Below, piece by piece: positions 41,636 through 63,829 of a DNA stretch of 64,000 nucleotides; within the stretch, counting starts at the first letter, position 1, and each line of letters opens with the position of its first letter. Under the pieces are notes generated by a model that saw nothing but the letters and a program-made list of their open reading frames with translations, ran no database searches and was not told where the DNA came from. A program made the translations under genes and the position numbers. The DNA comes from a virus: IMG/VR virus record IMGVR_UViG_3300042402_005830, positions 11,726 to 75,725 of that record. One strand, written 5' to 3'.

Positions 41636-43798
41636 GTGGGAATTCAAAATATTAGAAATCATTCCAACAACGCAATTAAAGTAAGATTGGATACTTCACA
41701 GTATTACGATTTTTACTTATCTAATGATGAAATCGAGTTCGACCAAGAGACCGTTTTTTCCACTAATTTAATTGGTTTTGACGATGGTTCGGTTTTACCT
41801 GTTAATATCAGATTATGGGACAACGACTGTTCACCACAATTAGAATTAAATTATGGTGATTTCAACAGTGATAATAATATAGTTTCAGATAAATTTTATC
41901 CATTTGATGATCTACAAGAAAGTGAATGTTACACTTTAACAGGAATTTGTGATGTTGGATTAACCGGTATTGACAATGGTCTGACAGATAGAATGACAGG
42001 CGAAACACTTTACCATACCAAAGGTTTATTAGAAAGTATAAATAAATTTGATAGATTAACATACGACAGGCTGCTTAAGTTGATTTCTGTTACATCAAAC
42101 GTAAGATCCCCCAACACAAGATTTTCAGGTCTGACTGCAGATACCGTGTATAATATAGTGTCCAAAAATTCTTCAGATTTTGGATACTATCAAGAATTAT
42201 ATGGTGGTTTTTATCAAGGATTCTACAAACTGCATGAATATGATTGGCAAATTCTTCCGGAAAGATATGAATTAGGATGGACTTTAGAAACCGTTATAAG
42301 ACCTAGAATATACGATGAATTTACCCCGAATAATGGGCAAACAACATTGAACCAAATTTATCCTGAGAACGCAGGTATTTTCTTTTTCATGGGTACAAGG
42401 GCTGAAGATAAATTTTATCATTATGCATCAGGTCATCCTGAAAATTATACAGCATATACGAGGGTCACTGAAAATTTAGATTGTTTAAAAACTTGTTCAT
42501 GTAGTCAAACTGGATTTACCTCTGATTGTTATAATGTTTATCCAATTTCGGGTAATACATTTCAGGGAACTGACTGTACCGTTTGTGGGAACGCATGTGA
42601 ACATAAGGTAGTGGCTATTCCACCAAAAAACCCAACAATAGATGTATTATCTAACTCATTTGCAATAAGGTTGTCTGGTGATCCAAAAAACCCCAAAATT
42701 AATATTAGAACAATAACAATTACAGGTGCTTGTCAAACAACAGCCGATTGTAGTAATAACGAATATTATTTGACCGGATATTCAATCAATAACATATATT
42801 CGAATATAGGTATTTACGATTTTTGTTCGGGAAGTACAAATCAAACTGATTTTTTGAATACAGAAAAGTGGTTACAAATTGATGTATCATTCAAACGATA
42901 TACTTTTTATGAGGGGTGTGATCTTTTTTATGAGGGGGGTATTGGTGAGATGAGTTCATTGATTTATCCCGCAACAGAAAGAAATGACACTTTAAGTTTA
43001 ATAAGACCACCTTTTACTCACGATGAAGAAGTAGAATATCCAGTTCAAAGAGTGGTTATGAATCGAGATTTTATTGATTCCAAAGATAAAAGGCTTGGGA
43101 CATTAAAAGTATTTTTAAATGGGTATTTGTTTATGGTGGTAGAAAATTTCGAAGAAATAATTCCAAGACCTTTGGATACTGAAAAAGAAAAACAAATAGG
43201 GGTAAGTTATTCTATGTCTTGGGGTGGTGGAACTCAAGGGTTAAGAGAAAATTTGACATTTAACTCCTGTACTGGAACCACTTACCAACAAGATCCTGAA
43301 CTTTTTCCAGACACAGTTTTATCATCTACAACATTGTCTGGAATTTCTACCGGAATTTTGATGGAAAAATATTTTGGAGGAACATTTGATGGTGCCTTAT
43401 CTGAATTTAGATTTTATGCTCAACCTTTGAATGGTGGACAAATTCAACATAACAATAGAATATTGAAAGGGATATATAATTTATTTGATTATTTTTGTTT
43501 GAATTGTGGTGAATTTGAACCAGCCCCTACACCCACACCATCTACACCGGTTACCGCAACACCAACACCAACAATTACACCGACCATCACTTTAACACCT
43601 TCTATTACACCTACTATAACAGTAACACCTTCAATTACACCAACGGTGACTGTAACCCCTGGTCTTACTCCTACGGCACAACCAACACCTTCAGTCACAC
43701 CAACTCTCACCACAACACCAAGCATTACCCCTACTGTTTCGAGATCACCAGGTAATACAGGTATAAAAACAATTTTTGTTCGATTTAATAATCTTTGA
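41636..43798 (+). CDS. Putative virion protein: LamG/ConA-like fold with a C-terminal Thr/Pro repeat
   Basis: WTLETVIRP, KWLQIDV, LKVFLNG, FDGALSEFRFYAQPL; tail of TPTIT/TPSIT/TPTVT repeats. Confidence 0.65.
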   Translation: MGIQNIRNHSNNAIKVRLDTSQYYDFYLSNDEIEFDQETVFSTNLIGFDDGSVLPVNIRLWDNDCSPQLELNYGDFNSDNNIVSDKFYPFDDLQESECYTLTGICDVGLTGIDNGLTDRMTGETLYHTKGLLESINKFDRLTYDRLLKLISVTSNVRSPNTRFSGLTADTVYNIVSKNSSDFGYYQELYGGFYQGFYKLHEYDWQILPERYELGWTLETVIRPRIYDEFTPNNGQTTLNQIYPENAGIFFFMGTRAEDKFYHYASGHPENYTAYTRVTENLDCLKTCSCSQTGFTSDCYNVYPISGNTFQGTDCTVCGNACEHKVVAIPPKNPTIDVLSNSFAIRLSGDPKNPKINIRTITITGACQTTADCSNNEYYLTGYSINNIYSNIGIYDFCSGSTNQTDFLNTEKWLQIDVSFKRYTFYEGCDLFYEGGIGEMSSLIYPATERNDTLSLIRPPFTHDEEVEYPVQRVVMNRDFIDSKDKRLGTLKVFLNGYLFMVVENFEEIIPRPLDTEKEKQIGVSYSMSWGGGTQGLRENLTFNSCTGTTYQQDPELFPDTVLSSTTLSGISTGILMEKYFGGTFDGALSEFRFYAQPLNGGQIQHNNRILKGIYNLFDYFCLNCGEFEPAPTPTPSTPVTATPTPTITPTITLTPSITPTITVTPSITPTVTVTPGLTPTAQPTPSVTPTLTTTPSITPTVSRSPGNTGIKTIFVRFNNL

Positions 43799-45018
43799 TA
43801 ATGAAAAATGAATCTTTACATCAATCAATTGAACAATTAAAGGTCGAATACGATAATGAATCAATTTGTTTGGGAAAAAAAATAAAAAATGGTGTTGTAA
43901 CTGACGAATTATCTGTGGTTTTTTTCGTCGATGAAAAAAAACCAATTGAACTTCTTTCATCATCAGAATTAATACCTAGTAGAGTTAATTTGAATGGGAC
44001 AATTTTGAAAACAGATATTGTTGAATCTTTTGTTGCAAATACAAACCCATGTCCTACTGAATTTAATACAAATTGTATTTTTAATCCTGTTCCTAACAGG
44101 TCATACATTCGACCAATTGTGGGTGGTATTTCAATCAGAAAAACCACAGATGGTATAGGTACTCTTGGTTTTATGGCGAAACATTCTGAAACAGGATCTC
44201 TAGTTGGGGTTACCAATTTACATGTTGCAATGAAAACTCATTATTTGGCATCAACACTTTGTAAGACACCCCCATGTTCTTTCAATTATAATTCTTTAGT
44301 TGAGCAAATTTATCAACCAGGTGAAAGTTCTTCTTATGAAACTGATTTTTATAACTTAGGTAGAGTTATGTATTGTTATTTATTACCTTCAACTAGCGCT
44401 GAAATAGATTGTTGTTTGGTTGCTTTGAAGGAAAGTGTCACCTCAAACTCTCAATCATATAAACAGTATGGATTAGATTTCACATACGCTCCTATTTTTG
44501 CAACAACTGCGGAAATTGACTCGATCTTAACAAATAATATTCCTTTAGCCGCGTCAGGTCGTTCATCAGGACCCAAACAAGGAAGTCTTTGTGGTTTGAA
44601 GGCATTGTACTCCAATTTTTCTACAAGTGTTCAAGGGTACAGAAAAAATAACGATGGTAAAATTTGGATTCACCCATTTCGAAATCAAATTGCGTTCACA
44701 AGAGTTAATGAAAGTTGCCCCGACCCTTCTATTCCGGGTGATTCAGGATCAGGGGTTTTTGGATTTTTTAATGGTGTATGGAAATTAGTGGGTTTGAATT
44801 TTGCCGGTGGTACATTAGGAAGTGGTATAGAAGTTGGTATATTTAATCGAATTGATAAAGTTGCGGAATTGATGGGTATTGAACCTTGGAATGGTAGTCC
44901 CACAAGTTTTTTAAATTTGAATAACATAGATACTTACGAAATTCAAGGATTTGATTCTCAACGAACAATTACTGTTAATGGACAAACTTATTGGCAATCT
45001 GGATTAGTAGAAAATTAA
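43795..45018 (+). CDS. Nal1-like trypsin-fold serine protease
   Basis: GTLG, VTNLHVA (His), IDCCLV (Asp), PGDSGS (Ser), VGLNFAG; N-terminal GKKIKNG..ELSVVFFVDEKKP...LIP module. Confidence 0.8.
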   Translation: MIMKNESLHQSIEQLKVEYDNESICLGKKIKNGVVTDELSVVFFVDEKKPIELLSSSELIPSRVNLNGTILKTDIVESFVANTNPCPTEFNTNCIFNPVPNRSYIRPIVGGISIRKTTDGIGTLGFMAKHSETGSLVGVTNLHVAMKTHYLASTLCKTPPCSFNYNSLVEQIYQPGESSSYETDFYNLGRVMYCYLLPSTSAEIDCCLVALKESVTSNSQSYKQYGLDFTYAPIFATTAEIDSILTNNIPLAASGRSSGPKQGSLCGLKALYSNFSTSVQGYRKNNDGKIWIHPFRNQIAFTRVNESCPDPSIPGDSGSGVFGFFNGVWKLVGLNFAGGTLGSGIEVGIFNRIDKVAELMGIEPWNGSPTSFLNLNNIDTYEIQGFDSQRTITVNGQTYWQSGLVEN

Positions 45019-45080
45019 CCTTTACGATGGGTGAATTTTTTTTATGATTTACGTAAAATAAAATTCAATTCCATAATTAA

Positions 45081-46325
45081 GTGACCATATTTGTTCAAAT
45101 AGCCTCTTATAGAGACCCTGAGTTAGAAAAAACAATCAAGAATATGATTGAAATGGCGGATCGACCCGATAAATTGAGGTTCGGAATCGCAAGACAATAT
45201 AGTGAAGAAGATGGATTCGATAAATTAGAAGAATATAGAGAAGATACAAGATTCAGAATTCTCGACATTCCTTATAATGAATCAAACGGTGCTTGTTGGG
45301 CGAGACACCTTATTCAACAACTCTACAAAAATGAAACTTATACCCTTCAAATCGACTCCCACATGAGGTTCGAGAAAAGTTGGGATATAACTCTAATTGA
45401 CATGATTGATCAACTTAAAGAGGATGGTCATGAAAAACCACTTTTGACTGGTTATGTAAGTTCGTTTGATCCCGATAATGATCCGGCAGGAAGAGCAAGA
45501 GACCCTTGGAGGATGACTTTTGATAGATTTATACCTGAAGGAGCTGTATTTTTCTTACCCGAAACAATTCCGAATTGGAATGATTTGGATAAACCAGTAC
45601 CTGCTAGATTTTATTCAGCTCACTTCTGTTTTACTCTTGGACAGTTCTCTAAAGAGGTGCAACACGATCCTGAATATTATTTTCACGGAGAAGAAATCAG
45701 TATTGCCGCAAGGGCGTACACACATGGATACGACTTATTTCACCCACACAGAGTTGTTATTTATCACGAATATACAAGAAAAGGTAGAACCAAACAGTGG
45801 GATGATGATAAGAAGTGGGTTGAAAAGAATAACCGTAGTCACCAAAAAAATAGACAATTGTTTGGAATGGATGGTGAAGAACAGATTGATTTTGGAGATT
45901 TTGGATTTGGAAAAGTTAGAACTTTAAGAGATTACGAAAGATATTCGGGTCTCCTATTTAGTCAAAGATCCGTACAAAAATATACTTTAGATAAAGAATA
46001 CCCACCAAATCCAAATGATTTTGAAACCGAAGAAGATTGGATAAACTCATTTACAAAACAATTTAAACATTGTATTGATATCGGTTATGATCGAGTTCCT
46101 GAAAAAGATTATGACTTTTGGGTGGTTGCATTTCATGACCACAATGATGAGACCATATTTAGAAAAGATGCGGATAAACACGAAATTCAAGGTTTTTTCC
46201 GAGATCCTGATGGATATTGTAAAGTTTGGAGAACTTTTAATGCGGAACAAAAACCAGCATATTGGGTTGTATGGCCACACTCTGAAAGTAAGGGTTGGGG
46301 TGAAAGAATGACCGGTAATTTATAA
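45081..46325 (+). CDS. GT60-family (GlcNAc/Gnt1-like) polypeptide alpha-GlcNAc transferase
   Basis: TIFVQIASYRDPEL, GACWARH, YTLQIDSHMRF, SAHFCF, YFHGEEISIAARAYTHGYDLFHP. Confidence 0.85.
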   Translation: MTIFVQIASYRDPELEKTIKNMIEMADRPDKLRFGIARQYSEEDGFDKLEEYREDTRFRILDIPYNESNGACWARHLIQQLYKNETYTLQIDSHMRFEKSWDITLIDMIDQLKEDGHEKPLLTGYVSSFDPDNDPAGRARDPWRMTFDRFIPEGAVFFLPETIPNWNDLDKPVPARFYSAHFCFTLGQFSKEVQHDPEYYFHGEEISIAARAYTHGYDLFHPHRVVIYHEYTRKGRTKQWDDDKKWVEKNNRSHQKNRQLFGMDGEEQIDFGDFGFGKVRTLRDYERYSGLLFSQRSVQKYTLDKEYPPNPNDFETEEDWINSFTKQFKHCIDIGYDRVPEKDYDFWVVAFHDHNDETIFRKDADKHEIQGFFRDPDGYCKVWRTFNAEQKPAYWVVWPHSESKGWGERMTGNL

Positions 46326-46342
46326 ATAAAAAAAATAAAATC

Positions 46343-46978
46343 ATGATAACAAAATGGAATTATAATAACCACGGGGAATTTAGACCCTATGTAAAGGACT
46401 TAATTTCTAAAAATAATTACACATCAATTGATATTGGTGCGTCCGCAAGATATTGGTCCTATCCTGAATGTAAAGTAGTTGTAGATACATATCCGGTTCA
46501 TGAAAAAGATACATTATTTTTTGATATAAACATTGAAGATATCGAACAATGGGATAAAATATTTGAATATGTGAATCAACATGGAAAATTTGATTTTTCA
46601 ATATGTTCACATACTATGGAAGATGTCTTTAATCCTATAGAATTATCTAAAATTTTAGAAAAAATTTCAAAAAGGGGTTATATTGCAATACCATCAAAAT
46701 ATAATGAATTTACCAAACTGTTTTCTAATAAATACAGAGGTGATGCACATCACAAACAGTTTTTTGATGTTTTTGACAACCAGTTAATTGTTTATCCAAA
46801 ATTTAATTGGATTGAAACAGATGAAAGAAGTGATTTGATTTTAAAAAATTATGTAGCAAATGAATTAACTTTGTTTTGGGAGGAAAAAATACCAATCAAA
46901 GTTTTTGGTAATGGTAAACCCTATATTGGAGATGATAATTTAATTAACGCTTATTATAACCAACTAATAATTAAATAA
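46343..46978 (+). CDS. Class I SAM-dependent methyltransferase
   Basis: SIDIGAS, FDFSICSHTMED, RGYIAIPS. Confidence 0.75.
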   Translation: MITKWNYNNHGEFRPYVKDLISKNNYTSIDIGASARYWSYPECKVVVDTYPVHEKDTLFFDINIEDIEQWDKIFEYVNQHGKFDFSICSHTMEDVFNPIELSKILEKISKRGYIAIPSKYNEFTKLFSNKYRGDAHHKQFFDVFDNQLIVYPKFNWIETDERSDLILKNYVANELTLFWEEKIPIKVFGNGKPYIGDDNLINAYYNQLIIK

Positions 46979-47805
46979 TGATCGAAATTTACAATGAATA
47001 TGATCATCACTTACAGGGTGGTCATTTTTCCTCCTATAAAAAGAATTTGGGAAATAAATTATTCATCTATGCCACTTGTAAAATAATTTCGGATTCATTG
47101 GATTATAATCTAATATTACCTGATAAGTCATTTATAAGACGAGAAACACAAAAAACAAATCAATATATAGTTGATGAGTTTCCTTTTGGAAGTATTACTA
47201 ATAAAAAGTCTGTTGATTGTTGCCCAATTGTGATCGATGATGATACTTTTATTTCTTATGGGAGTATTGAAAATTTTATAAAAAAAATAGACAATAATAA
47301 AATATTATCAACAGGGTACTATAGTAAATATGAATATATTAAACCGTATAAAAATGAGGTACGAAATTTTTATAAAAAGTTAGTAAAAGAAAAGAGAAAT
47401 AACAATGACATAATTATGATGCTGAGAAATAGTCGAGATGATGCTAGATTTGTAATTGATGATGAATATTATTTGACTATCCTTGAAAATGAAGAATTTG
47501 AAAATTTATATGTATCAATTGACCATACATATCAGCACAGTAGTATTTTAAAAAAAATTGAAAAGTATAATCCAAAATTTATTGACGGTGGAATTATCGA
47601 TGTTTTTAGTGAAATTACAAGTTTTAATAGAATAATCGCTTGTCAGGGAACATTTTCATTTTGGGCTTGTTTTCTGTCCAACGCTGAAAAAATTTATTGG
47701 CCATTGACTAAAGATGGACCAAACTCGAATAATCTATCTCATGGTAAACATTTAAATTTGATCGTTGATGATGAATCAAGATATGAATTTATTAAATTAA
47801 AATAA
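46978..47805 (+). CDS. GT11-like alpha-1,2-fucosyltransferase
   Basis: LGNKLFIYA, GYYSKYEY, MMLR..D, IIACQGTFSFWACFLS. Confidence 0.7.
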   Translation: MIEIYNEYDHHLQGGHFSSYKKNLGNKLFIYATCKIISDSLDYNLILPDKSFIRRETQKTNQYIVDEFPFGSITNKKSVDCCPIVIDDDTFISYGSIENFIKKIDNNKILSTGYYSKYEYIKPYKNEVRNFYKKLVKEKRNNNDIIMMLRNSRDDARFVIDDEYYLTILENEEFENLYVSIDHTYQHSSILKKIEKYNPKFIDGGIIDVFSEITSFNRIIACQGTFSFWACFLSNAEKIYWPLTKDGPNSNNLSHGKHLNLIVDDESRYEFIKLK

Positions 47806-47818
47806 AACTTGTACAAAA

Positions 47819-48817
47819 ATGAAAACAATTAAAGTGTCTAGAGCAAATTTTCCAGGAGTTGGAAATTTCTCGTGGTTAAATTTTTTTGTTAAAATCCTCT
47901 CCAAAAAATACAATGTGGTTATTGATTCTAAAAATCCTGATATTGTAATTTACACTAACCAATTTTATAGAGAAGGGGAATTAGATTATTACACAAAAGA
48001 TACAATCAAAAGTGAAACGGAATATGGTCCAAAAGTTAAAAAAATATTTTTGAGTGGGGAGGCGAGACCTGATTTTAACTCTCATTTAAATAAAGGAGAA
48101 AATTATTATTGTATGGGTTATGAACATCTAACCCACGATAGATATCTCAGATTTCCTACATATGTTTTGGATGCGTTTGTTTTACATAATGAAGGTGGAA
48201 TGTTTGATAGTGATTTTGGTTGGCTAACAGAAAAACGAGATTCACAAAATATTTTAAATGGGAAAAAACATTTTTGTAGTATTGTTCAATCGAGTCATAA
48301 TGTGGATAGGGAAAAGTTATTCGATGAAATCATAAAAAAACATTGGATTAAATCTTCGGGACCTTGGAGACAAACAATCAATAACTCTGAAGTCTTAAAT
48401 CCACATCAATACCATAATTATTCAAATCCTGATTATATGGGTAAAATCGATGGACTAACTTACCGAGATAAAATTAAATTCTTTTCTGATTGTGTATTTA
48501 ACATATCATATCAGTACACAGATACTGATTATTTAACACAAGAAAAAATTATTCATGCTTACGCATCCGATTCCATACCAATTTTTTATGGAAATAAATT
48601 TATCGAAGAAGAAGGATTTAATCCTAATTCTTTTGTAAACGCACATAAATTTGAGACAATTGAATCTTTAGTAATTTATTTAGATGAGTTATATCAGGAT
48701 AGAAATAAACTAACAAAATTTTTCGAAGAACCTATTTTTATCGATAATAAATTACCAATTTATTTCAATGAAGAGTACGTTTTAGAATTTTTAGATAAAA
48801 TAATTAGCGAAAATTAA
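47819..48817 (+). CDS. GT10-like alpha-1,3/4-fucosyltransferase
   Basis: NPDIVI, KIFLSGE, YLRFP, KHFCSIV, KIKFFSDCVFNISY...YLTQEKIIHAY...IPIFYG. Confidence 0.8.
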   Translation: MKTIKVSRANFPGVGNFSWLNFFVKILSKKYNVVIDSKNPDIVIYTNQFYREGELDYYTKDTIKSETEYGPKVKKIFLSGEARPDFNSHLNKGENYYCMGYEHLTHDRYLRFPTYVLDAFVLHNEGGMFDSDFGWLTEKRDSQNILNGKKHFCSIVQSSHNVDREKLFDEIIKKHWIKSSGPWRQTINNSEVLNPHQYHNYSNPDYMGKIDGLTYRDKIKFFSDCVFNISYQYTDTDYLTQEKIIHAYASDSIPIFYGNKFIEEEGFNPNSFVNAHKFETIESLVIYLDELYQDRNKLTKFFEEPIFIDNKLPIYFNEEYVLEFLDKIISEN

Positions 48818-48912
48818 TTAAAACACTTTTTATATTGACAAACAAATATTGGAAAAGTTTTATAAAAAAATATCTATAAAAGTGTCTTACTAAAAATTAT
48901 TATTTATTAATT

Positions 48913-49593: not shown

Positions 49594-49607
49594 AAATAAA
49601 AAATATC

Positions 49608-50351: not shown

Positions 50352-50379
50352 AAAATTAATAATTTAAAAAACTAATTTA

Positions 50380-51300
50380 ATGAAAACTAAAATAGTCACA
50401 GCTTACTGGATGGACGTTGAAGGTTACCCATTCCAAGGTACAAGAAGTTCTTTAAAACCAAGATATTTGGGATCACTGATCAGTCACTGCAAAGGAATTA
50501 ACTTTCCTATTATATGTTATACACACAGTAAAAATTATGAAGAACTCCTCCAACTAAAACATTCATATCAACTTAGTAATTTAGAAATAAAACTGTTCGA
50601 ACTTAGTGAAATGAAGTTTCATAAAGAAATATCGAAAATAAGAGACGTAAATTTCGATACGGATTTAAGTGGTAGAGGTCCTGAAATCATGTGGGGAAAA
50701 TTTGAGGTTATGGAAAAGGAATTAGATAATTGCGATCGACTTTATTGGATAGATTGTGGATTACAACATCCTGGAATTTTCCCTTGGATGTACTGCGTTC
50801 CATATGGTGATATCGAATACCACAGAGGTGGTGTACCTGTTTGGGTTAACAATGAAATTAGTCAATATGATTTCACAAAATTATTTAATACCAAAATTTT
50901 TGAAATTTTAAATAAAAAAACAGAAAACAAGGTCTTCAATATCACATCAACAAACCCTCAAATTGGTTATAAACTTCATTCTTTATCAATCGATGTTCCA
51001 CCAATATATCCGCCTTATCCTATAGGTGGAATGATAGGTGGTGATTCTGCAAAATTACGGGTTTATCTGAATACTTTTTGGAACGTTTGTTCAAAGGTTT
51101 TGGAAAAAAATTACCTCTGCACCGAAGAAGAATTAATGAAGCCCACTTTTGATATTTGTTCGGATATCATGATAGATTACCAATTCTCAGTTTATCAAAC
51201 AAATGAACAAGATGATTTTCATTTTAATGTTTGGAGTGAAAAAAGTAATAAACCAAAACCTCTTTATATGGTTTGGAATGATATTTTAAGTGAAGAATGA
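50380..51300 (+). CDS. HtrL/YibB (WlaTC)-like glycosyltransferase
   Basis: KIVTAYW, MWGKF, YWIDCG, GGMIGG, TEEELM. Confidence 0.6.
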   Translation: MKTKIVTAYWMDVEGYPFQGTRSSLKPRYLGSLISHCKGINFPIICYTHSKNYEELLQLKHSYQLSNLEIKLFELSEMKFHKEISKIRDVNFDTDLSGRGPEIMWGKFEVMEKELDNCDRLYWIDCGLQHPGIFPWMYCVPYGDIEYHRGGVPVWVNNEISQYDFTKLFNTKIFEILNKKTENKVFNITSTNPQIGYKLHSLSIDVPPIYPPYPIGGMIGGDSAKLRVYLNTFWNVCSKVLEKNYLCTEEELMKPTFDICSDIMIDYQFSVYQTNEQDDFHFNVWSEKSNKPKPLYMVWNDILSEE

Positions 51301-52163: not shown

Positions 52164-52168
52164 AAGAA

Positions 52169-53848: not shown

Positions 53849-53865
53849 TATATTTATAATATATT

Positions 53866-56800
53866 ATGATTAGTTTTTACATAAAAAAAAATTCTAATTT
53901 ACCATTATTAAAGGTAGAAATTTTACAAGACGGTAGAAGTCTTCATAATGACTATACACCTTACTTATTAAATTCAGTTGTTTATTTTTCTATGGTTGAC
54001 GAATTGACCGGTCAAAAAATAATACTGAAAGATATTGCAAAAATCGAATTAAGGGACGGAAAACTCATCTTAATTTATCAGTTTAAAAGTAAAAAAATTG
54101 GTAAAACAGGATCATACTATGGAGAATTTTTGTTAATTAACAATAATGGAAATTTAACATTACCAATTATTGAACGAATAAAGATATACGTAATAGATTC
54201 AATTTTCGATACAGATGACGTTGAATGTTGTGGACCTGATCAAAATATCATAATTGTTCCATCTCAAACTCCAGTTTCTCCATCAAACACTCCGACTCCA
54301 AACCCTTCTAAAACACCATTACCCACCAAAACTCCAACACAAACGTCAACTCAGACACCAACACAAACACCAACATCCACATTAACACCAACACAAACAC
54401 CAACATCCACATTAACACCAACACAAACACCAACATCCACATTAACACCAACTAACACCGCAACCTTAACCCCAACAAATACCGTAACTCCTACAGAAAC
54501 ACCTACAAACACAATCACACCTACAAACACAGAAACACCTACAAACACAATCACACCTACAAACACAGAAACGCCTACAAATACAATCACAGCGACAAAC
54601 ACAGTCACACCGACCATAACTTCCACACCTACAAATACCGAAACACCTACAAACACGATCACTCCAACTTCAACATCAACACCTACAAATACAATCACTC
54701 CGACTCTAACATCAACACCTACAAGTTCAGTTACACCAACAAACACAGAAACACCTACAAACACAACCACTCCAACTTCAACATCAACACCTACAAATAC
54801 AATCACTCCGACTCTAACATTAACACCTACAAGTTCAGTTACACCAACAAACACAGAAACACCTACAAACACGACCACTCCAACGTCAACATCAACACCT
54901 ACAAATTCAATTACACCAACAAACACAATTACCCCAACGAATACAATCACACCGAGCACTACATCAACACCTACAACTACAAATACTACAACACCAACAA
55001 TTACTAATAGTGTTTCTATTACTCCTTCAGAAACTCAAACTCCTACTCAAACACCGAGTAATACTGAAACACCCACAAACACTCCAACAAATACAGTAAC
55101 ACCAAGCACCACTGAGACCCCATTCAAATCACCCACTCCAACAAATAGCCAAACACCTACAAATTCTATAACCCCTAGTCTTACAGAAACTCCAACAAAT
55201 ACTGTCACACCAACAAACACGCTGACACCAACAAATACAGAAACTCCAACAAATACTGTCACACCAACAAACACGCTGACACCAACAAATACAGAAACTC
55301 CAACAAATACTGTCACACCAACAAACACTCTGACACCAACAAATACAGAAACTCCAACAAATACTGTCACACCAACAAACACGCTGACACCAACAAATAC
55401 AGAAACTCCAACAAATACTGTCACACCAACAAACACGCTGACACCAACAAATACAGAAACTCCAACAAATACTGTCACACCAACAAATCCTGAAACTCCG
55501 ACTAATACTCTAACACCAACATCTACTGAAACTCCCACTAATACTCTAACACCAACAAATACACCGACATCAGATTTTGTGAGAACAGGTTTGATTATTC
55601 AATTAGAGGCGGATAGTAGTGTAAGTTATCCAGGTGTGGGAACAACTGTTTTTGATTTAACAACCAACTCATATAACCATACATTAACTGACGGAGCATC
55701 ATTTACAACACTTAATGGTATTAAATGTTTTGATTGTACATCCTCAACAGAAAGGGTTGTTGTGAATGGTACTGGACCAACATTACCAACAAGTGGATAC
55801 ACATACATTACTTGGGCTAGAGTAGAAGAGGGTAATCCATTATCATTTAGGACATTACTTTATACAAACTCACCTAAATACACACCAATTACAATCCCCA
55901 ACGGAACCAATACATTAGGATATTGGGATACCGAATTTAGAAGTTCAGGATATGACCTTTCATCTTCGGTTGGTGTTTGGGTTCAATACGCAATAGTTGG
56001 AGATAGTTCATCTCAAACTTTCTACATAAATGGTTCACAAGTCGGAAGTCCGATAGCTTTCGGTTCAGGTGGAAGAACTCATTGGGGGTGGGGTAATAAT
56101 GATATTGTTCCTCAAGCTTGGGGTTATGTTGCAAATTTATATTTGTATAATAGAAAATTATCACTTTCTGAAATATCTCAACAATATAATTTACTTGCTC
56201 CGAGATTTGTAGAATTAAGCCCAACACCGACAAATACTCAAACACCAACATTTACTCCAACAAAAACTACGACTCCAACTAAAACTCTAACACCAACAAA
56301 TACAGAAACTCCAACTAACACTGTAACTCCAACAAATACTATCACACCAACAAACACGCTGACATCAACAAATACTGTCACACCAACAAATTCTGAAACT
56401 CCGACTAATACTCTAACACCAACATCTACTCTAACTCCAACAAATACTGTCACACCAACAAACACAGAAACTCCAACAAACACACAGACACCAACAATTA
56501 CTGAAACTCCAACTAATACTGTAACTCCAACTCAAACACCTACACAATCATCAGAGATTGAAATAAATTTTGGAGTCACTTATGAAAGCGGATCAACGGT
56601 TGCCAATTACAGTTTTACGGCTTCAACTGAAGTAGAGAGTGATTTAGAAATTAATTTTAAAAATATTATATACAAAAACAATGGAGATGAATATGTAATT
56701 TCTGATTTTGTTGTTATACCCTCAAGAAATACCATTGGATTTAAAAGAGTCCAACTGAATGATTTAGATTATTTGGATGTAAAACCTTATGAATTAGTAT

Positions 56801-58443
56801 ATTCGAGTATTACAAATAATCAATCTTTGGATTTAATATACAACAAGTACGCCGAAGTTTTATTTTTAGGAAAACCAAATCCAACTTTAGTTAACTGGAT
56901 CTTCAAACCCTGTTGTCCAACTGACAGTGAAATATATCTCAAAGTAAATTACAATGATACTTTATCAGGTGGATGGGTAAACTTAGGTTTTGGTGTTATA
57001 TATAACAAAAAATGTTATACAGCATTCAGTTCTGGTGGAGATGGTAGTAATGGAACTGTATATGGTGCAGATATTAAATCCTGCTCACAAATTTATGGAT
57101 GTCCTGTTTGCCCAACACCATCCCCAACCTCAACTCCAACAATAACTCGAACAAACACACCTACCCCAACTACAACAAAAACACCAACTTTAACATCAAG
57201 CGTTACACCAACAACCACTTCAATTTTTGGGTTTATGGAATGTGTTGGATCAATCGAATTTATAACACCAACACCAACAAATACACAAACACCGACACCA
57301 ACATTTACCCAAACTCCAACAAATACACAAACACCTTCTACAACTCCGACTAATTCTCCATTCGTTGGTTTTATGGATTGTGTGGGGTCGATCGAATTTA
57401 TAACACCAACACCAACAAATACACAAACACAAACTCTTACTTCTACTTTAACTCCGACTCAAACTCCTACTTCTACTTTAACTCCGACTCAAACTCCTAC
57501 TTCTACTTTAACTCCGACTAATTCTCCATTCGTTGGTTTTATGGATTGTGTGGGGTCAATCGAATTTATAACACCAACACCAACAAATACACAAACACAA
57601 ACTCCTACTTCTACTTTAACTCCGACTCAAACTCCTTTTGTTGGTATTTTGGAATGTAGTAGTACAGTTCAAAATGTTACGCCAACTCCAACAAATACAA
57701 TAACACCAACAAATACAATAACACCAACGATTACCCCAACAAGAACAGTAACACCAACAAGAACAGTAACACCAACAAGAACTTTGACACCAACAAACAC
57801 AAGAACTTCTACTATCACCCCCACACCAACACAAACTTATTTAGATTATTCAAATGATTCAATATATCAATCCCTGTCAATCTCAGGTAAAACAGCATAT
57901 TTGAACGCATCGGTCGGAAATTATCTCAACGTGAGTGAGTCTGATTATCTCTCGGTTTTAAATTCTGTGAGTGGTGCTAGTACTTATGGTCCTGTCACAT
58001 ATAATCAATTTACAGGTAGTACTGCTAGTGAGTTCAGTTCTCCTTGGGTTATTTCTGATTCAACACAAAGTGGGCTTGAAGGTGGTTCCTATATTTTAGG
58101 ATTTGCAGTGAGGGGATCAAGAACAGGATCTCAGGGTTCCTATACTGTTGGTGTACAACAAACAACGGGTACTGTTTCAGGTGGAACTTATACCGCTGTT
58201 ACATCTAACGTAAGTTTTACAAATACTGTAGCCGGAAGTAAAACATATTTCATACGGAAGTCACCTCAAACAAATATGAGTGTAACTTCTTATCTTGCAA
58301 TTTATTTTAGTATGAATTTATCACAATTAAATTTATCGGCGAGACCACTTTATTACGATAATAATGGAACTCCACCTTTTACTACGGGTAATTTTAGTCC
58401 AGTTGCTTTCATTTCCATGGTGAGTCCATATAAAACTTGGTAA
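53866..58443 (+). CDS. Large mucin-like Thr/Pro-repeat putative virion protein (BppU-like N domain, LamG domain, Cys module)
   Basis: N-terminal FYIKK..LPLL...Y.F....GSYYGEF; long TPTNT/TPTQT tracts; LamG motifs ([39 protein letters not shown]). Confidence 0.75.
54355..54444 (+). repeat. 30-bp tandem repeat x3 ([10 protein letters not shown])
   Basis: Unit ACACCAACACAAACACCAACATCCACATTA. Confidence 0.85.
55183..55487 (+). repeat. 54-bp near-perfect tandem repeat, about 5.6 copies ([18 protein letters not shown])
   Basis: Units start at 55183, 55237, 55291, 55345, 55399 and 55453. Confidence 0.9.
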
Positions 58444-58486
58444 ACTTTTTTTTAAATCACATATTTATAATTAATTAAATTAATCG

Positions 58487-61400
58487 ATGGCATCTCAAGG
58501 ACAAATCAATATTACAAATACTAATTTAACAGGGTCTTCATATTCTTTTGAAATATATATAAGAATTTGCGGATCGGGTTCTTGGGGATCACCAATTGAT
58601 ACAATACCATATAGTGGTTTTCCTTTCTATTTTGATGTTCAATCTGTTTTGGGTGATGTAGATTGTTATGAATATGGAGTTATTGAAGTTGAAACAAATA
58701 CTCAGTGTAGTGGTACAGTTAATTACGCAACACCAAGTCCAACACCTACAAATACGGTTACACCTACCGTAACTATGACGCCAACATTGACAGTAACATC
58801 CACAATAACTACAACACCAACAAATACTGTAACTCCAACCAACACAGTTAATTGTAATTCGGCTTATGTAGAAATTTCAAGTGTTCAAAATCCATCCTTT
58901 AGTGGTGCCTCAGGCACTATAAATATTTCAGTATCAGGACAAACAGGCGTTTGGTTTGTAAATCAAGTTGTTGCAAACACCGGCGGTGGTGATATTGTAT
59001 TAACCGCGAATACAAATTACTCGACTCAATCTGAAACAGGTTCGACTCTTATTTTAGAAGTTATAATTACAGGTCAGACGTTAGAAACATTTGGAAACAC
59101 TTACACGGTAAATGTTTTAAGCCCGCTTGGATGTAATCAAACAAAACAAATTACATTCAACAGTCCAAGTCCAACACCTACTAATACGGTCACACCTTCC
59201 ATCACTCCAACAATTACAAATACACCCTCGATTACAAAAACAACAACTCAAACACCCACTAACACATCAACAAATACACCAACCAATACTGTCACACCAA
59301 CAAATACATTAACACCAACAGTCACTTTGAGTCCCGAACTCACGGTTGATTTTGGTGCGACATATGAGTCAGGTTCTTTAATTGCTAATTATGTATTCAC
59401 TGCTAATACTGTTGTTTCAGAAAATTTAACAATTTCATTTACCAACGTTTTATATGATTCAGTTGCTAGTCAAAATATTTATATTTACACTTCGGTTACT
59501 ATAAATTCAGGATTTTCCACAGGACTAACCCAAGTCGTCTTATCCGATAAAAGTTATAATAATTTATTAAAAAATTACACTGAGTTTTTGGATGTTACAT
59601 CTAACAGAAACAATGTAAATTATAATAAATTCAGTAAAATTGTTTTTGATGAGGATTCTCCCATTTATGCACAATATTACGCAAAAAAATGTTGTACTGA
59701 AGATACGGGACCTACAGATGTTTATTTTAATACAGCAACTGTAAATTGGGTGACAGATGCTGGTATCGTCTATAACGGTGTTTGTTACAAGATCGAATCT
59801 CAGGGTGACATTGGTGATTTTATCGGAGTTTATTTAGGTGCGGATTTTTATGGTGAATGTAGAGAGTATCAAGGATGTTCTTGTTATCAACCAGAACCAT
59901 CTGAAACCGCAACACCAACAGTTACTGTTACTCCAACAGTTAGTCCTTCACCTCCCTGTAATGTTGATTTGGGTTGTTTTGCTAATGGGGTAGAATGTGA
60001 TCTAGGTTGTTATACCAATGTTGTCTTCATAACTCCAACTCCAACACCAACAATGACCCAAACTCCTGCGGCACTTGGTATTGTTTTCTTAGGGTGTTCT
60101 ACAAACAACACATATTTGTTATTTGATGGTCCTTTTGGTATCTCATCTCCTATTCAAGGTGTTGTTGGACAAACCTATTTAATTCCTGAATTAGAACTAG
60201 CAGGTTATGCCGATACATGTGCAACTATAGTAGACAATTTGAATAGTCAAATTTTTCTATTTGATGTTGCATTACCATCACAAATTTCAAACTGTGAAAA
60301 TATATCATGTAATTTAGACAATGTTGTAACTTTCCAAAATTGTTGCACTGAAGATAAAGTAAATTTTTCGATAACAAGTATCTTTGATTATTCGGATCCA
60401 ACACAAAATATTTTACCAAATATAGATCAGATCATGTACACAAATAATGCATCTGACAATGATTTTATAAAAATTTGTTATCAGAGAGTTGATCCTGACT
60501 ATACCGTTGATTTTTATCCTGATGTTGTTTTACAGATTAGTATCTATGATGATTGTAACACCTGTTTGGATTACGACAACGAAAATTGTTTAGTTAGCAG
60601 AAGATTAGAATCTTGTTGTGGTGAACAAATTTATCCAGATATTGTTGGATTGATTCCACCATATATACAGGAAGGTGAATTTATTGTCGCTGATGGTTAT
60701 GCATATAATGTCGCAGGTTTATTTATTAATGGTATAGCCTTCACAACTATCGAAACAGGATTTAGTGGATGTTCTGATGCTATAGCAGCATCAGTAATAC
60801 CCAACTGTGTTCCATTACCAACTCCAACAAACACACCTACTCAGACGATAACACCAACGATTACTAAAACACCAACACAAACCCCCACAATAACACCAAG
60901 TACTTCATATACCTCTTTTGCTCTTTCACAATGTTGCGAAACCCTTGCACCGTCACCATTATCGGTTGCCAAATTACCAACATCAGCTTTTGAGGTCGGA
61001 GATTATGTAGTAATTGCGGGTGTTGCATATACACTGACATCGGTCACTTCAGGTGGAAATATTGTAAACTATACTGGACCATATTCAACATGTCAACTGG
61101 CAGTGAATGCTGCCACTTATAAGTGCGTTTATACAATGAACAGTTGTTGTGGAAATGATATCATTCCATATTGGTATTATGTTGACATAATAAATGCCCC
61201 AATAACTTTTAGTTTGTCATCTAATACAATTTATGATATAGATACATCATTTGTAAAAAATTACTCGGTTGATCCTGATCCGCCTATTTATGTTTGTTGG
61301 GTCTTAGAAGAATATGATAATAATATTCCCTTTAGTGGTGCTCCTGTTGGATGGAATGTAAATGACGGTTGTGGTGTGGGAAGATGTATAAGATGTTTGT

Positions 61401-62062
61401 TTACTCTTTCATCGTGTACTACAAATGATACAATCACATGGACAGCGGATTACGACGAAGTGATTAATTTAGGTGATGTTATTTTCATTTCAGGACTACA
61501 AGATAATTTAGGAGTCGGAAATTGTGCAATAGTTATTGACCCGATTGAAAATGGTATTACAAGTACCACATATGATTATCAAACTTTTGGAAATAATAAT
61601 TATTTAATCTTGAATACGTGTACCGATAATGCGTGTTATAATTGTGTGTCTGGTGTTACGATTACCTCCCTTTCAGCTGGGACTCAGACCGTGAGTTATG
61701 TTTCTTGTCAAGGTGTCACCTCAACACTTTCTCTTGGTGCTGGTGCAACTACGACAATACCTGGTTGTATAGATTTGTCATCCACAATAGCTCTTATTTA
61801 TAACATCAATAATGTGAATCCTTCTCTTGAAGTAGTTTCTGTCGGTAGTTGTTGTACAAGATCTGGATTGACAGTTCAAAACACATCGATGTCTCAACAA
61901 ACCGTAACCTATTGGAATTGTGCAACACAGTCCAACGTAAACGCCAACGTTCCTGCGGTTTCAAGTGTTGGTCTTTCGGGTGTAATTTTGATGTCATCAT
62001 TAAACCTACCTGTTGGTGTGAGTATAACAAACCAAGGGTCTTGTGCCTCTTGTAACCCATAA
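58487..62062 (+). CDS. Large Thr/Pro-repeat and Cys-rich modular putative virion protein
   Basis: TPT tracts separate globular domains; repeated CC...C..C modules; shares a domain with the protein at 53866. Confidence 0.75.
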   Translation: MASQGQINITNTNLTGSSYSFEIYIRICGSGSWGSPIDTIPYSGFPFYFDVQSVLGDVDCYEYGVIEVETNTQCSGTVNYATPSPTPTNTVTPTVTMTPTLTVTSTITTTPTNTVTPTNTVNCNSAYVEISSVQNPSFSGASGTINISVSGQTGVWFVNQVVANTGGGDIVLTANTNYSTQSETGSTLILEVIITGQTLETFGNTYTVNVLSPLGCNQTKQITFNSPSPTPTNTVTPSITPTITNTPSITKTTTQTPTNTSTNTPTNTVTPTNTLTPTVTLSPELTVDFGATYESGSLIANYVFTANTVVSENLTISFTNVLYDSVASQNIYIYTSVTINSGFSTGLTQVVLSDKSYNNLLKNYTEFLDVTSNRNNVNYNKFSKIVFDEDSPIYAQYYAKKCCTEDTGPTDVYFNTATVNWVTDAGIVYNGVCYKIESQGDIGDFIGVYLGADFYGECREYQGCSCYQPEPSETATPTVTVTPTVSPSPPCNVDLGCFANGVECDLGCYTNVVFITPTPTPTMTQTPAALGIVFLGCSTNNTYLLFDGPFGISSPIQGVVGQTYLIPELELAGYADTCATIVDNLNSQIFLFDVALPSQISNCENISCNLDNVVTFQNCCTEDKVNFSITSIFDYSDPTQNILPNIDQIMYTNNASDNDFIKICYQRVDPDYTVDFYPDVVLQISIYDDCNTCLDYDNENCLVSRRLESCCGEQIYPDIVGLIPPYIQEGEFIVADGYAYNVAGLFINGIAFTTIETGFSGCSDAIAASVIPNCVPLPTPTNTPTQTITPTITKTPTQTPTITPSTSYTSFALSQCCETLAPSPLSVAKLPTSAFEVGDYVVIAGVAYTLTSVTSGGNIVNYTGPYSTCQLAVNAATYKCVYTMNSCCGNDIIPYWYYVDIINAPITFSLSSNTIYDIDTSFVKNYSVDPDPPIYVCWVLEEYDNNIPFSGAPVGWNVNDGCGVGRCIRCLFTLSSCTTNDTITWTADYDEVINLGDVIFISGLQDNLGVGNCAIVIDPIENGITSTTYDYQTFGNNNYLILNTCTDNACYNCVSGVTITSLSAGTQTVSYVSCQGVTSTLSLGAGATTTIPGCIDLSSTIALIYNINNVNPSLEVVSVGSCCTRSGLTVQNTSMSQQTVTYWNCATQSNVNANVPAVSSVGLSGVILMSSLNLPVGVSITNQGSCASCNP

Positions 62063-62066
62063 AAAT

Positions 62067-62597
62067 ATGTCAGAAAATAGAATATTATACGATCAGAACA
62101 ATAATTTTGTTGTAGGATCTTGGATTAGACCAATAATGAAAGAACACGCTATTTTGGTTAGTCTTAATGGTGGCCATATCTTAGAATTTGGTTTTGGTTT
62201 AGGAATTTTTTCAGAGGAAGTTCAAAAGATTGGTGTAGAATCTCATACTATAGTAGAAAATGACCCACAGAGATATTCCGAACTTCTAAAATTTGCCGAA
62301 AATTATAATACTGTAATTCCTATTTTTGATAGTTGGTTAAACTTCGAATCAAAAATTAAATATGATGGAATTTTCCACGATACTAATACATCAATTGATT
62401 TATTTAGTTCATATGTTTCTAAGTGGGCAAAAGAGGGTGCTATTATTAGTTGGTTTTCACCAGCAAAAAAAGAACATGCGTTACTTAATGAGTTTGCGGA
62501 TAGATACATAGAAATCCCAATAGACATGACCGAATATGAAATTTACGATAGTAGCTTCAGAGACACGTATTACTTACCATTGAAGATTTACAAATAA
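62067..62597 (+). CDS. RMT2/GAMT-like class I methyltransferase
   Basis: W.RPIMKEHA...NGGHILEFGFGLGI....Q......HTIVE..P, YDGIFHDT. Likely start 62067 (track start 62043). Confidence 0.75.
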   Translation: MSENRILYDQNNNFVVGSWIRPIMKEHAILVSLNGGHILEFGFGLGIFSEEVQKIGVESHTIVENDPQRYSELLKFAENYNTVIPIFDSWLNFESKIKYDGIFHDTNTSIDLFSSYVSKWAKEGAIISWFSPAKKEHALLNEFADRYIEIPIDMTEYEIYDSSFRDTYYLPLKIYK

Positions 62598-62626
62598 AAA
62601 TTAAAGATATTTATTAAATAAAAAAA

Positions 62627-63829
62627 ATGCCAACGACTGTAGAAATAGGTATGACAAACGAAATCATCGGAATCACATCCTTTGATTTTTTTGTAAGTGA
62701 GTGTGTTCAACCACCGAACTGGGTAATAGTAGCCAATGATATTAGTTTTGAGGAACAACCAATTGTTGTTGATCTCGATTCATTCATAACCGTGACAAAC
62801 GATTGTTTTCTCTATTACATTTCCGGAGACACTGGATGTTACTGTACAGGAACGGGGTCTACAGTCCCCCCACCCCCAACTCCAACATCAACACCCTCGA
62901 ATACACCTTCACAAACCGTAACTCCATCAATCACACCTACAATATCTTTAACTTCATCCATCACCCCTACAAATACGATTACCCCAACTATTACACCAAC
63001 AACAACTCTAACACCAACACCCACAAAAACCCCCACACCAACACCAATCGCATGTACCGAAATCACACCTTTACTTATTACAGGAACTAGCTCTAACGCA
63101 AACATTTGGGATGGTTATATTTTGACTACAGGTGCTAATCAATACAATAGTTTGTGTGATATTGCAACATGTTTGAACTTAAGTGGTAATAGTTCTGTCA
63201 GTATGGGATCAAGAATATTAACGGCTGACCTATATGTTCCAACATCAGGATTATCCACAACTCTATCTGCGGCGACACCTCTATATAACAGCTCTTGTGT
63301 TCAATATACACAATCTACTTTCTATGTTAATGGTAACTTCAGCACTAACACATTCACACCCGGAACCGAACTTTATGTCATAATAAGCGGTATTTCAGGT
63401 AATACTATATATCAGATAGCACCAGGTGCTGGCAATAATATGTTTATAAGTCTATATGCAACTTGTGACTATAGCGGTGGTACTCAATCTATCGTAGGAT
63501 TCGATGTTCAAATGAATAATCAAGGTCAATGGGTTATCGATGGTGTGGTAGAACCGAACTTAACATTACAATGTGGTGTCGAATACAACTTCCACATTTG
63601 TAGCACCGGTGCTACAGAATTTTGGTTGGCTGATAAATATAACCTATCCGATGAGTCATTACCAAATGGTACTGATGCTCTTGGTACATTGGATGGTGTA
63701 TATAACAATGGCGATAATTTTGGATCTATTGTTGTGACATTTGATTCCGCAGGAACAGATGGTGGATATTGGTACGGATATAATGATGTTGTGGGTGCTG
63801 CTGGACGTATATTCGTAAACGGATGTTGA
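62627..63829 (+). CDS. Thr/Pro-repeat putative virion protein
   Basis: TPT tract; N domain resembles that of the protein at 58487; TATTTAT upstream. Confidence 0.7.
   Translation: MPTTVEIGMTNEIIGITSFDFFVSECVQPPNWVIVANDISFEEQPIVVDLDSFITVTNDCFLYYISGDTGCYCTGTGSTVPPPPTPTSTPSNTPSQTVTPSITPTISLTSSITPTNTITPTITPTTTLTPTPTKTPTPTPIACTEITPLLITGTSSNANIWDGYILTTGANQYNSLCDIATCLNLSGNSSVSMGSRILTADLYVPTSGLSTTLSAATPLYNSSCVQYTQSTFYVNGNFSTNTFTPGTELYVIISGISGNTIYQIAPGAGNNMFISLYATCDYSGGTQSIVGFDVQMNNQGQWVIDGVVEPNLTLQCGVEYNFHICSTGATEFWLADKYNLSDESLPNGTDALGTLDGVYNNGDNFGSIVVTFDSAGTDGGYWYGYNDVVGAAGRIFVNGC

Follow-up and report, generated by a model that had tools for sequence, protein, structure and literature searches.

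A candidate cytoplasmic mucin-type O-glycosylation module, a GT60 enzyme among Thr/Pro-repeat genes, in an uncultured jumbo phage

The glycosyltransferases (GTs) of family GT60 that have been characterised modify polypeptides, on Thr of Trypanosoma cruzi mucins and on hydroxyproline (Hyp) of Skp1 (PMC6939170). The protist enzymes acting on mucin-like substrates, the T. cruzi OGNT on mucin Thr and a Dictyostelium Golgi enzyme on PTVT-type repeats, sit in the Golgi membrane and serve the secretory pathway. Here we analyse a GT60 gene of viral origin, located at 45081..46325 (+ strand) of a 64,000-nucleotide stretch of the IMG/VR record IMGVR_UViG_3300042402_005830 (record positions 11,726 to 75,725; the whole of this stretch is called the window, and its own numbering is used below), where it opens a block of nine genes surrounded by four genes coding for Thr/Pro-repeat proteins. 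It has in common with the protist enzymes the Pfam family, the DxH motif and, as we infer, Thr/Pro-rich repeats as acceptors, but it is predicted from its sequence to be soluble and cytoplasmic, possesses an additional C-terminal domain of ~105 aa, and shows genetic linkage to, or fusion with, a tandem GT-A enzyme. We think it likely, from the comparative sequence evidence presented here, that the block encodes a cytoplasmic mucin-type O-glycosylation module acting on Thr/Pro tracts.

A close cytoplasmic counterpart is the Skp1 pathway of Dictyostelium and Toxoplasma (PhyA, the GT60 enzyme Gnt1 and the GT74-GT2 enzyme PgtA), in which a GT60 initiator is likewise followed by a bifunctional two-domain GT (PMC6939170). 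That pathway, however, acts on a single Hyp of a single protein and depends on a prolyl hydroxylase, whereas neither of the profiles PF13640 and PF13661 had a match in five near-complete relatives of the phage. Our literature search found no papers linking HtrL, the family to which part of the tandem enzyme belongs, with GT74. In the serine-rich repeat adhesins of Gram-positive cocci, O-GlcNAc is initiated on the repeats in the cytoplasm by GtfA/GtfB, and strain-variable GTs, some of them bifunctional, extend it; the initiator there is a pair of GT4 enzymes of the GT-B type, the acceptor is Ser-rich and export uses an accessory Sec system. The phage system has none of the three. Giant viruses (the chlorovirus capsid, the Mimivirus fibrils) offer another likeness, with virus-encoded soluble GTs that build particle glycans independently of the host, and the tandem enzyme described below has the Mimivirus protein R699 among its best matches by fold, but these viruses infect eukaryotes and differ in their GT families and acceptors.

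Among tailed phages, the account of Freeman et al. 2023 given in PMC12619734 describes mycobacteriophages whose own GTs O-glycosylate particle proteins in the host cytoplasm; the acceptors in that account are the C-termini of capsid and tail tube proteins, whereas the candidate acceptors here are long tandem repeats and the initiator is a GT60. The first-pass annotation of this DNA, made from the letters alone, had proposed that no such pathway was described in a tailed phage. This was too strong, given the mycobacteriophage work as cited there and the stained virion glycoproteins of the Xanthomonas phage XacN1, to which we return. As for GT60 itself, a deep survey of GT-A enzymes states merely that the family occurs in prokaryotes and protists (PMC7185993), and we found no paper assigning a function to a GT60 of phages or bacteria.

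The GT60 enzyme, its tandem GT-A partner and the cassette between them

The product of 45081..46325, a predicted initiating polypeptide alpha-GlcNAc transferase, matches the Pfam profile PF11397 (GT60) with an E value of 1.3e-76 (258.8 bits, for a cut-off of 21) and the PHROGs family phrog_24687 with an E value of 1e-169. The triplet D92-S93-H94, which takes the place of the GT-A metal motif DxD, is invariant among 14 homologues; this DxH is the variant metal motif that marks families GT27 and GT60 (PMC7185993). The first-pass assignment to GT60 was thus borne out. The protein is composed of a catalytic part (~aa 1-305) and a clade-specific C-terminal domain (~aa 310-414), for which one might speculate a role like that of the lectin domain of GalNAc transferases. 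A PDB search with the sequence and with its profile matched no chain. When 1.8 billion cluster representatives were searched, GT60 amounted to 5,436 clusters at the 50% identity level. The only cultured phages found to carry this GT60 are the Xanthomonas jumbo phages XacN1 (ORF334) and Xoo-sp13 (Xoo-sp13_304) and two Stenotrophomonas phages, at 44-50% identity.

A scan of IMG/VR yielded 158 stretches with GT60 relatives, from which 80 loci were kept, and every gene of the region was compared with them by tblastn. Two genes only are conserved: the GT60 gene (80/80 loci, by construction) and the last gene of the block, at 52169..53848 (+), found in 79/80. The latter encodes a 559-aa tandem GT-A enzyme, with an HtrL_YibB-like N-terminal domain (WLDAG) and a GT2-like C-terminal domain (EDD). 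It matches the HtrL_YibB profile PF09612 (E 6.4e-13, 49.4 bits, cut-off 24.1), and its score against the NCBIfam YibB equivalog (55.8) lies far under the cut-off of 264.9; it is therefore a member of the HtrL_YibB family and not a YibB orthologue. Its AlphaFold2 model is of good quality (predicted local distance difference test, pLDDT, 86.7), and the top Foldseek matches of this model are enzymes with two GT-A domains, namely human LH3, Mimivirus R699, LARGE1, the chondroitin polymerase K4CP, COLGALT1 and heparosan synthase. The motifs WxDxG, in the N-terminal domain, and EDD, in the C-terminal domain, are invariant. The enzyme has more than 6,800 metagenomic relatives, some of which are fused to sugar O-methyltransferases of the families FkbM, CmcI and TylF, which would fit a role in glycan building.

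The order and strand of the two genes are always the same, GT60 first and its partner downstream, with an intervening DNA that ranges from 6 bp to 9.8 kb. Moreover, among the 1.8 billion representatives searched, at least 7 (P0246, P0223, P0195, P0179, P0187, P0189 and P0157) have both enzymes on a single polypeptide, and both domain orders occur. This conserved order, together with the repeated fusion, is strong evidence that GT60 and the tandem GT-A enzyme would work in one pathway. The two genes thus bracket a hypervariable cassette, as conserved genes do in O-antigen loci. Phage XacN1 carries the full layout, with ORF334 (GT60), a cassette including a carbamoyltransferase and the HtrL-like ORF332, and then ORF330, which is 41% identical to the 52169..53848 protein. 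The conserved core, its fusions and the hypervariable cassette between its two genes are new in this analysis.

In the window itself, nine consecutive co-oriented open reading frames (ORFs) on the + strand fill 45081-53848, as the first-pass annotation had it, and the seven between GT60 and its partner make up the cassette. Of these, 47819..48817 (+) codes for a 332-aa GT10-type fucosyltransferase-like protein (Glyco_transf_10, E 2.1e-8, 34.5 bits, cut-off 23.9; the FucT_N match, E 3e-5 and 24.8 bits, is under its cut-off of 27.2), with homologues in 8/80 loci. The 306-aa product of 50380..51300 (+) is a candidate single-domain HtrL-like GT: it aligns with the 52169..53848 family by hhalign (87%, E 3.7e-6), shares with it the WxDxG and GGxxGG/TEE motifs, is 34% identical to ORF332 of XacN1 and has homologues in 17/80 loci. 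The 275-aa protein of 46978..47805 (+), for which no homologue was found among the 80 loci, matches a phage GT family (phrog_2644, E 1.4e-5); it had been labelled GT11, but fails the threshold of that profile (E 0.028, 14.1 bits, cut-off 23.9). The methyltransferase label given to the 211-aa product of 46343..46978 (+; homologues in 7/80 loci) is likewise putative at best, as its Methyltransf_23 match (E 0.066) is below the cut-off. Neither of the ORFs at 48913-49593 (226 aa) and 49608-50351 (247 aa), both +, has a profile match in Pfam, PHROGs or NCBIfam, so that the GT-A labels they had received find no backing there; the tripeptides DLD and DGD are seen in them, and homologues occur in 9-10/80 loci. 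The 288-aa ORF at 51297..52163 (+) has no match in the same three databases and no homologue among the 80 loci. A megablast search of the cassette against 50,697 phage records gave no match. The GT60, GT10 and both HtrL-like labels of the first-pass annotation were thus upheld by profile or hhalign, whereas the methyltransferase, GT11 and two GT-A labels were not, nor was a NodZ/O-FucT-like one, which has no profile support in Pfam, PHROGs or NCBIfam; of the "fucosylated, methylated" glycan that had been proposed, one solid GT10 match is left and the remaining labels are weak.

No protein encoded in 41636-63829 contains a 19-residue window of hydrophobicity greater than 1.6, and therefore none has a signal peptide or membrane helix, which extends to the whole region what had been noted for the nine enzymes. 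This supports a soluble, cytoplasmic location of all the enzymes and repeat proteins, as predicted from their composition.

Thr/Pro tracts beside GT60 in phages and in bacteria

The four flanking genes were said to carry long TPTxT repeats, and they do, with Thr/Pro tracts of 87, 809, 224 and 89 residues in gene order (~1,209 in total, with 488 Thr). The main candidate acceptor is the 1525-aa product of 53866..58443 (+), in which 809 Thr/Pro residues are arranged in six blocks and which also has globular beads, one of them a Laminin_G_3 domain (E 2e-9, ~aa 638-771). It is followed by a 1191-aa Cys-rich (51 Cys) multi-domain protein (58487..62062, +), whose five Thr/Pro linkers sum to 224 residues and whose sole family match in profile searches is phrog_15511, of function not known, and by a 400-aa protein (62627..63829, +; phrog_15511, E 2e-11), in which two globular parts are joined by an 89-residue Thr/Pro linker (aa 67-155). 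Upstream of GT60, the gene at 41636..43798 (+) encodes a 720-aa candidate acceptor, in which a conserved N-terminal body of ~620 aa is followed by a Thr/Pro tract towards the C-terminus (aa 623-709, nt 43502-43762). Homologues of this N-terminal body lie upstream of GT60 in 23-26/80 loci, and their C-termini are interchangeable, being either a Thr/Pro tract, poly-Thr or a papain-like peptidase domain (motif IKNSWG...GG); such swapped C-termini were seen in loci L045, L053 and L060 (ORFs upstream of GT60), L046, L023 and L061. A PDB sequence search with the 720-aa protein gave no match.

Genuine tandem repeats in the DNA, some of them near-identical, underlie the tracts, and this points to recent repeat expansion of the kind seen in variable-number tandem repeats. 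In window 55182-55487, 5.7 copies of a 54-bp unit follow one another with 99% identity, and a 30-bp unit is present in 3.3 copies at 100% (54355-52). A DNA pattern for TPT-TPT-TPT had 77 matches in the 75.7-kb contig from which the window is taken, all on the + strand at window 54355-62993, with none elsewhere in the contig under the strict pattern and none in the reversed-sequence control.

The co-occurrence of GT60 and Thr/Pro repeats extends to the related phages. A Thr/Pro-rich ORF lies within 10 kb of GT60 in 66/80 loci; in nearly every case it shares the strand of GT60, and in many it adjoins the block itself. In the 50 loci that were left by dereplication, 30 of the 93 genes directly flanking the block were Thr/Pro-rich, as against 48/424 of the others nearby and 0/238 of those inside the block, a significant enrichment of the flanks (odds ratio 3.7, p 3e-6). 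In a whole-record search, tracts were found in 46/48 GT60-bearing records, including 5/5 near-complete ones, with ~0 control matches. In another record (G059), two (PT)n genes flank a divergent GT60. In the opposite direction, GT60 was found in 11/36 viral records sampled for having the tract pattern, a sample of non-random order drawn with a pattern that favours CCA codons. A relative with a 92% identical large terminase (TerL) and without the block had no Thr/Pro tract; it is an 88-kb fragment, and the TerL-based set of GT60-less relatives, mostly short contigs, is a weak control.

Several points weigh against the reading of GT60 as the enzyme that glycosylates the tracts. The phage counts are inflated by shared ancestry and are not independent events, because most loci stem from one freshwater lineage. 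Complete phages rich in Thr/Pro and without GT60 exist (G051, G052), as does a divergent GT60 with no Thr/Pro gene within 14 kb (G064). Thr/Pro linkers are common and can function unglycosylated.

Bacteria provide a replication outside of the phage lineage. Homologues of GT60 are present in Gemmatimonadaceae, Cytophagales, Betaproteobacteria, Gammaproteobacteria and further groups, in many cases next to the tandem GT-A partner. We took five bacterial genomes of 3.8-6 Mb, which belong to three phyla and were selected for a Thr/Pro ORF in the vicinity of GT60, and asked where else in the genome the tract pattern occurs. In 5/5, the sole or dominant tract sits 0.1-4 kb from GT60: the single match of Jiulongibacter sediminis is ~750 bp away and that of a Gemmatimonadaceae metagenome-assembled genome (MAG) 90 bp away, while 54/57 matches in Ralstonia sp. 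25C lie at ~1.1 kb, 45/45 in an Achromobacter sp. at ~4 kb, and 12 coding matches in Paraherbaspirillum soli at ~2.6 kb. The chance of a unique tract falling within 5 kb of one given gene is ~0.2% per genome. It is this replication, more than the phage counts, that convinces us that the Thr/Pro tract is the probable functional partner of GT60.

The tract of Ralstonia, of the Achromobacter, which is a MAG, and of Paraherbaspirillum forms a (TP)n tail, ~100 residues long or more, at the C-terminus of a full VgrG with Phage_GPD, gp5 OB and gp5_C domains. VgrG is the spike of the type VI secretion system and a homologue of phage tail proteins. The three genes (L278:12273-15134, L277:15055-17538 and L270:13903-16461, all on the - strand) lie 1-4 kb from GT60; their loci are without the HtrL/GT2 partner. 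In Cytophagales and Congregibacter, the partners are small Thr/Pro proteins with a twin-arginine-like N-terminus (RRLALRELFLGSS, RRKLLQALG), and in Gemmatimonadaceae a PqqD-like domain precedes the tract; small proteins of this sort stand beside GT60 and HtrL/GT2 genes at L264:8947-9813 (-), L275:8651-9631 (-), L279:6789-7451 (+), L265:9212-9952 (+) and L259:8438-9232 (+). All of these bacterial partners are made and folded in the cytoplasm and exit without unfolding, as would suit glycosylation by soluble enzymes and as is also the case for phage proteins that lysis sets free. The genome-wide test of tract uniqueness in bacteria and the VgrG tails are new in this analysis.

Taken with the enzymology of the family, the genomic coupling supports well the GT60-led glycosylation of Thr/Pro repeats that the first-pass annotation had proposed, leaving less secure its statements on glycan composition and virion location. 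The pathway may be pictured as follows. Late in infection, the soluble GT60 would place a first sugar on the Thr/Pro repeats of proteins encoded by neighbouring genes; by family precedent, this would be alpha-GlcNAc, taken from UDP-GlcNAc and attached most likely to Thr. The two-domain GT-A enzyme of 52169..53848 would extend it by one or two residues, and the lineage-specific cassette, with its GT10-type fucosyltransferase-like and HtrL-like proteins, another GT and four unassigned ORFs, would finish the glycan. The products would be bottle-brush-like stalks or linkers in large multi-domain proteins, leaving the cell only at lysis, probably as appendages of the particle.

Location of the repeat proteins, acceptor residue and possible other targets

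The window belongs to a 75.7-kb linear viral contig that represents about 25% of a genome according to CheckV. With its genes for the large terminase, portal and major capsid proteins, and with near-complete relatives of 290-322 kb that encode a tail sheath and baseplate J, this contig is a fragment of an uncultured freshwater-type jumbo myovirus. GT60 genes 64-68% identical to that of the phage sit on several low-GC contigs binned to MAGs of Saprospiraceae and other Bacteroidota, which hints at the phage host; the Saprospiraceae-binned contigs are probably those of jumbo phages co-binned with their host. Four of them (L247, L249, L252 and L253; GC 0.33-0.34, one of 230 kb) have a GT60 66-67% identical as well as the partner gene. 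Four core GT groups have been reported in freshwater Bacteroidota jumbo phages by the moraphage paper, and were left unresolved there (PMC12619734).

The first-pass annotation took the repeat proteins for fibre or baseplate components of the virion. We place them in the virion at slightly better than even odds, on account of a motif close to their gene starts, the VgrG parallel and the staining of XacN1 virions. The motif, (A/G)TATTTAT(A/T), lies 6-19 nt ahead of the starts of all four repeat genes, and is also found before the gene for the portal and several for head proteins. Possibly a late promoter element, it has occurrences at window 12093, 13985, 15419, 16309, 17358, 41613, 48901, 53851, 58462 and 62608 that end 1-33 nt before a start (17 nt for 41636, 6 nt for 48913 and 9 nt for 53866). 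TATTTAT occurs 28 times on the + strand, near a rough chance estimate from composition, and therefore what counts is solely its placement ahead of start codons; non-structural genes, among them a GT gene, have it upstream too. In XacN1, two or more glycoproteins became visible upon Schiff staining of purified virions, and the phage GTs ORF328 and ORF334 were suggested as their makers (PMC5852040). ORF334 is the GT60 homologue, and this link to the published staining is new here. The Thr/Pro pattern has 36 matches in XacN1, in ORF350, ORF369, ORF370, ORF372 and ORF384, and ORF369, 370 and 372 adjoin tail sheath and tail completion genes. ORF325 of XacN1, the giant gene nearest to the GT block, was considered and dropped, having only two 16-residue Thr/Pro linkers and no homology to the window proteins.

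The alternative that survives best, which we nevertheless hold to be rather improbable, is that the tracts are glycosylated but that the repeat proteins do not belong to the particle and are set free at lysis as soluble glycoproteins, such as decoys, an adhesive matrix or stalked enzymes. None of the four had a structural-family match in profile searches, and tblastn of their globular parts against the 50,697 phage records found no isolate homologue; the AlphaFold2 model of the 41636..43798 protein was unusable (mean pLDDT 36). The GT60 block of complete relatives is outside the sheath/baseplate module, preceding the tail sheath gene by 18-39 kb and baseplate J by 45-67 kb; relatives of the 41636..43798 protein have papain-like C-termini, and the bacterial counterparts include the small Thr/Pro proteins with Tat-signal-like N-termini. 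Against a released product stand the start-proximal motif, shared by all four repeat genes with portal and head genes (and with non-structural ones), the three VgrG partners, which are homologues of phage tail components, and the detection of the XacN1 glycoproteins in purified virions.

The second alternative concerns the residue. The same tracts could be glycosylated on Hyp by a Skp1-like route consisting of a prolyl 4-hydroxylase, a GT60 such as Gnt1 and a bifunctional enzyme such as PgtA. Gnt1, the founding GT60, is Hyp-specific, and the succession of a GT60 and a tandem two-GT enzyme mirrors that of Gnt1 and PgtA (PMC6939170); the repeats, moreover, are as regular in Pro as in Thr. GT60 domains joined to those of a prolyl hydroxylase do exist elsewhere, so that Thr is not the sole possible acceptor. 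These are found in giant metagenomic proteins of 1,641-2,461 aa (P0122, P0123 and P0124) with three to four tandem GT60 catalytic domains, which P0122 and P0124 combine with an AhpC/TSA peroxiredoxin and with both PF13640 and PF13661 prolyl-hydroxylase-type domains, and P0123 with PF13640 only; P0122 turned up in none of the viral and metagenome contigs that were scanned for it. However, the hydroxylase-fused GT60 domains share only 30-36% identity with the phage enzyme and do not have its ~105-residue C-terminal domain, and no prolyl hydroxylase was found in the phage: PF13640 has no match in the contig, as neither it nor PF13661 has in the five near-complete relatives, other oxygenase families and host hydroxylases lying outside the search. 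This negative result, also new here, is the reason for which we favour linkage to Thr/Ser over Hyp several times over, as far as genome content can tell, and regard the Hyp route as unlikely.

To our knowledge no characterised GT60 acts on DNA or lipid, which weighs against the block having targets other than the repeats. That it does have such targets (other particle proteins, the phage DNA or a host surface glycan), its adjacency to Thr/Pro genes coming from a shared fast-evolving late accessory region, has little probability in our view: DNA and host O-antigens are known targets of phage GTs (reviewed in PMC12619734), the cassette resembles an O-antigen locus in its hypervariability, the phage has at least three more GT genes elsewhere and Thr/Pro-rich genes make up ~11% of nearby genes in the lineage anyway, but all the proteins are soluble, membrane GTs, flippases and polymerases are absent, the C-terminus of the major capsid protein is ordinary and bears no Ser/Thr-rich tail of the mycobacteriophage kind, and the coupling recurs in unrelated bacteria with a genome-unique tract, which neighbourhood drift cannot explain. 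The gene for the tail tube, the other acceptor in mycobacteriophages, lies outside this contig.

The remaining genes of the region may be listed briefly. Upstream of the block are genes for PhoH, a dUTPase and an exonuclease, together with three more GT-like genes, at window 33120-35014 (-) and 37893-39107 (-), whose matches are Glyco_tranf_2_2 (E 3.6e-9), a weak GT1-type one (E 1.6e-5) and phrog_7162 (E 3e-44); the gene matching phrog_7162 has a TATTTAT motif upstream. A 247-aa ORF at window 32402-33145 (-) has a weak match to Sigma70 region 2 (E 0.003, below the cut-off) and may encode a phage sigma factor. Between the first repeat gene and GT60, 43795..45018 (+) encodes a 407-aa protease-like protein (phrog_20754 'protease', E 1.1e-11; Pfam NAL1_N, E 0.009, below the cut-off). 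Its start overlaps the stop of the 41636 gene by 4 nt, and it is kept in merely 6/80 loci. Between the last two repeat genes, a 184-aa ORF (62043..62597, +) is weakly methyltransferase-like (RrnaAD, E 0.006, below the cut-off) and has no homologue among the 80 loci.

Implications for mucin-type glycosylation and for jumbo phages

Beyond the phage itself, the combination of GT60, a tandem GT-A enzyme and a hypervariable cassette may represent a widespread, undescribed prokaryotic system of mucin-type glycosylation, operating in the cytoplasm on the Thr/Pro tracts of proteins that exit folded, be they jumbo-phage appendages, VgrG tails or small proteins with a Tat signal, and both the protist GT60 initiators of mucin glycosylation and the Gnt1/PgtA Skp1 pathway may have their root in it. 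We advance this wider proposal tentatively and give it somewhat less than an even chance. If true, a soluble phage and bacterial version would change the view of dense mucin-type O-glycosylation as an invention of the eukaryotic secretory pathway, and its simple soluble enzymes would lend themselves to the production of mucin-like glycopeptides in bacteria. Phages XacN1 and Xoo-sp13, as well as Ralstonia sp. 25C, whose VgrG ends in a (TP)n tail, provide cultured entry points.

For the phages, it would mean that thousands of environmental ones wear a glycan coat of their own making. The variability of the cassette, like that of an O-antigen locus, points to strong diversifying selection on the glycan, and such diversification may affect adsorption, resistance to proteases and to grazing, and host recognition.

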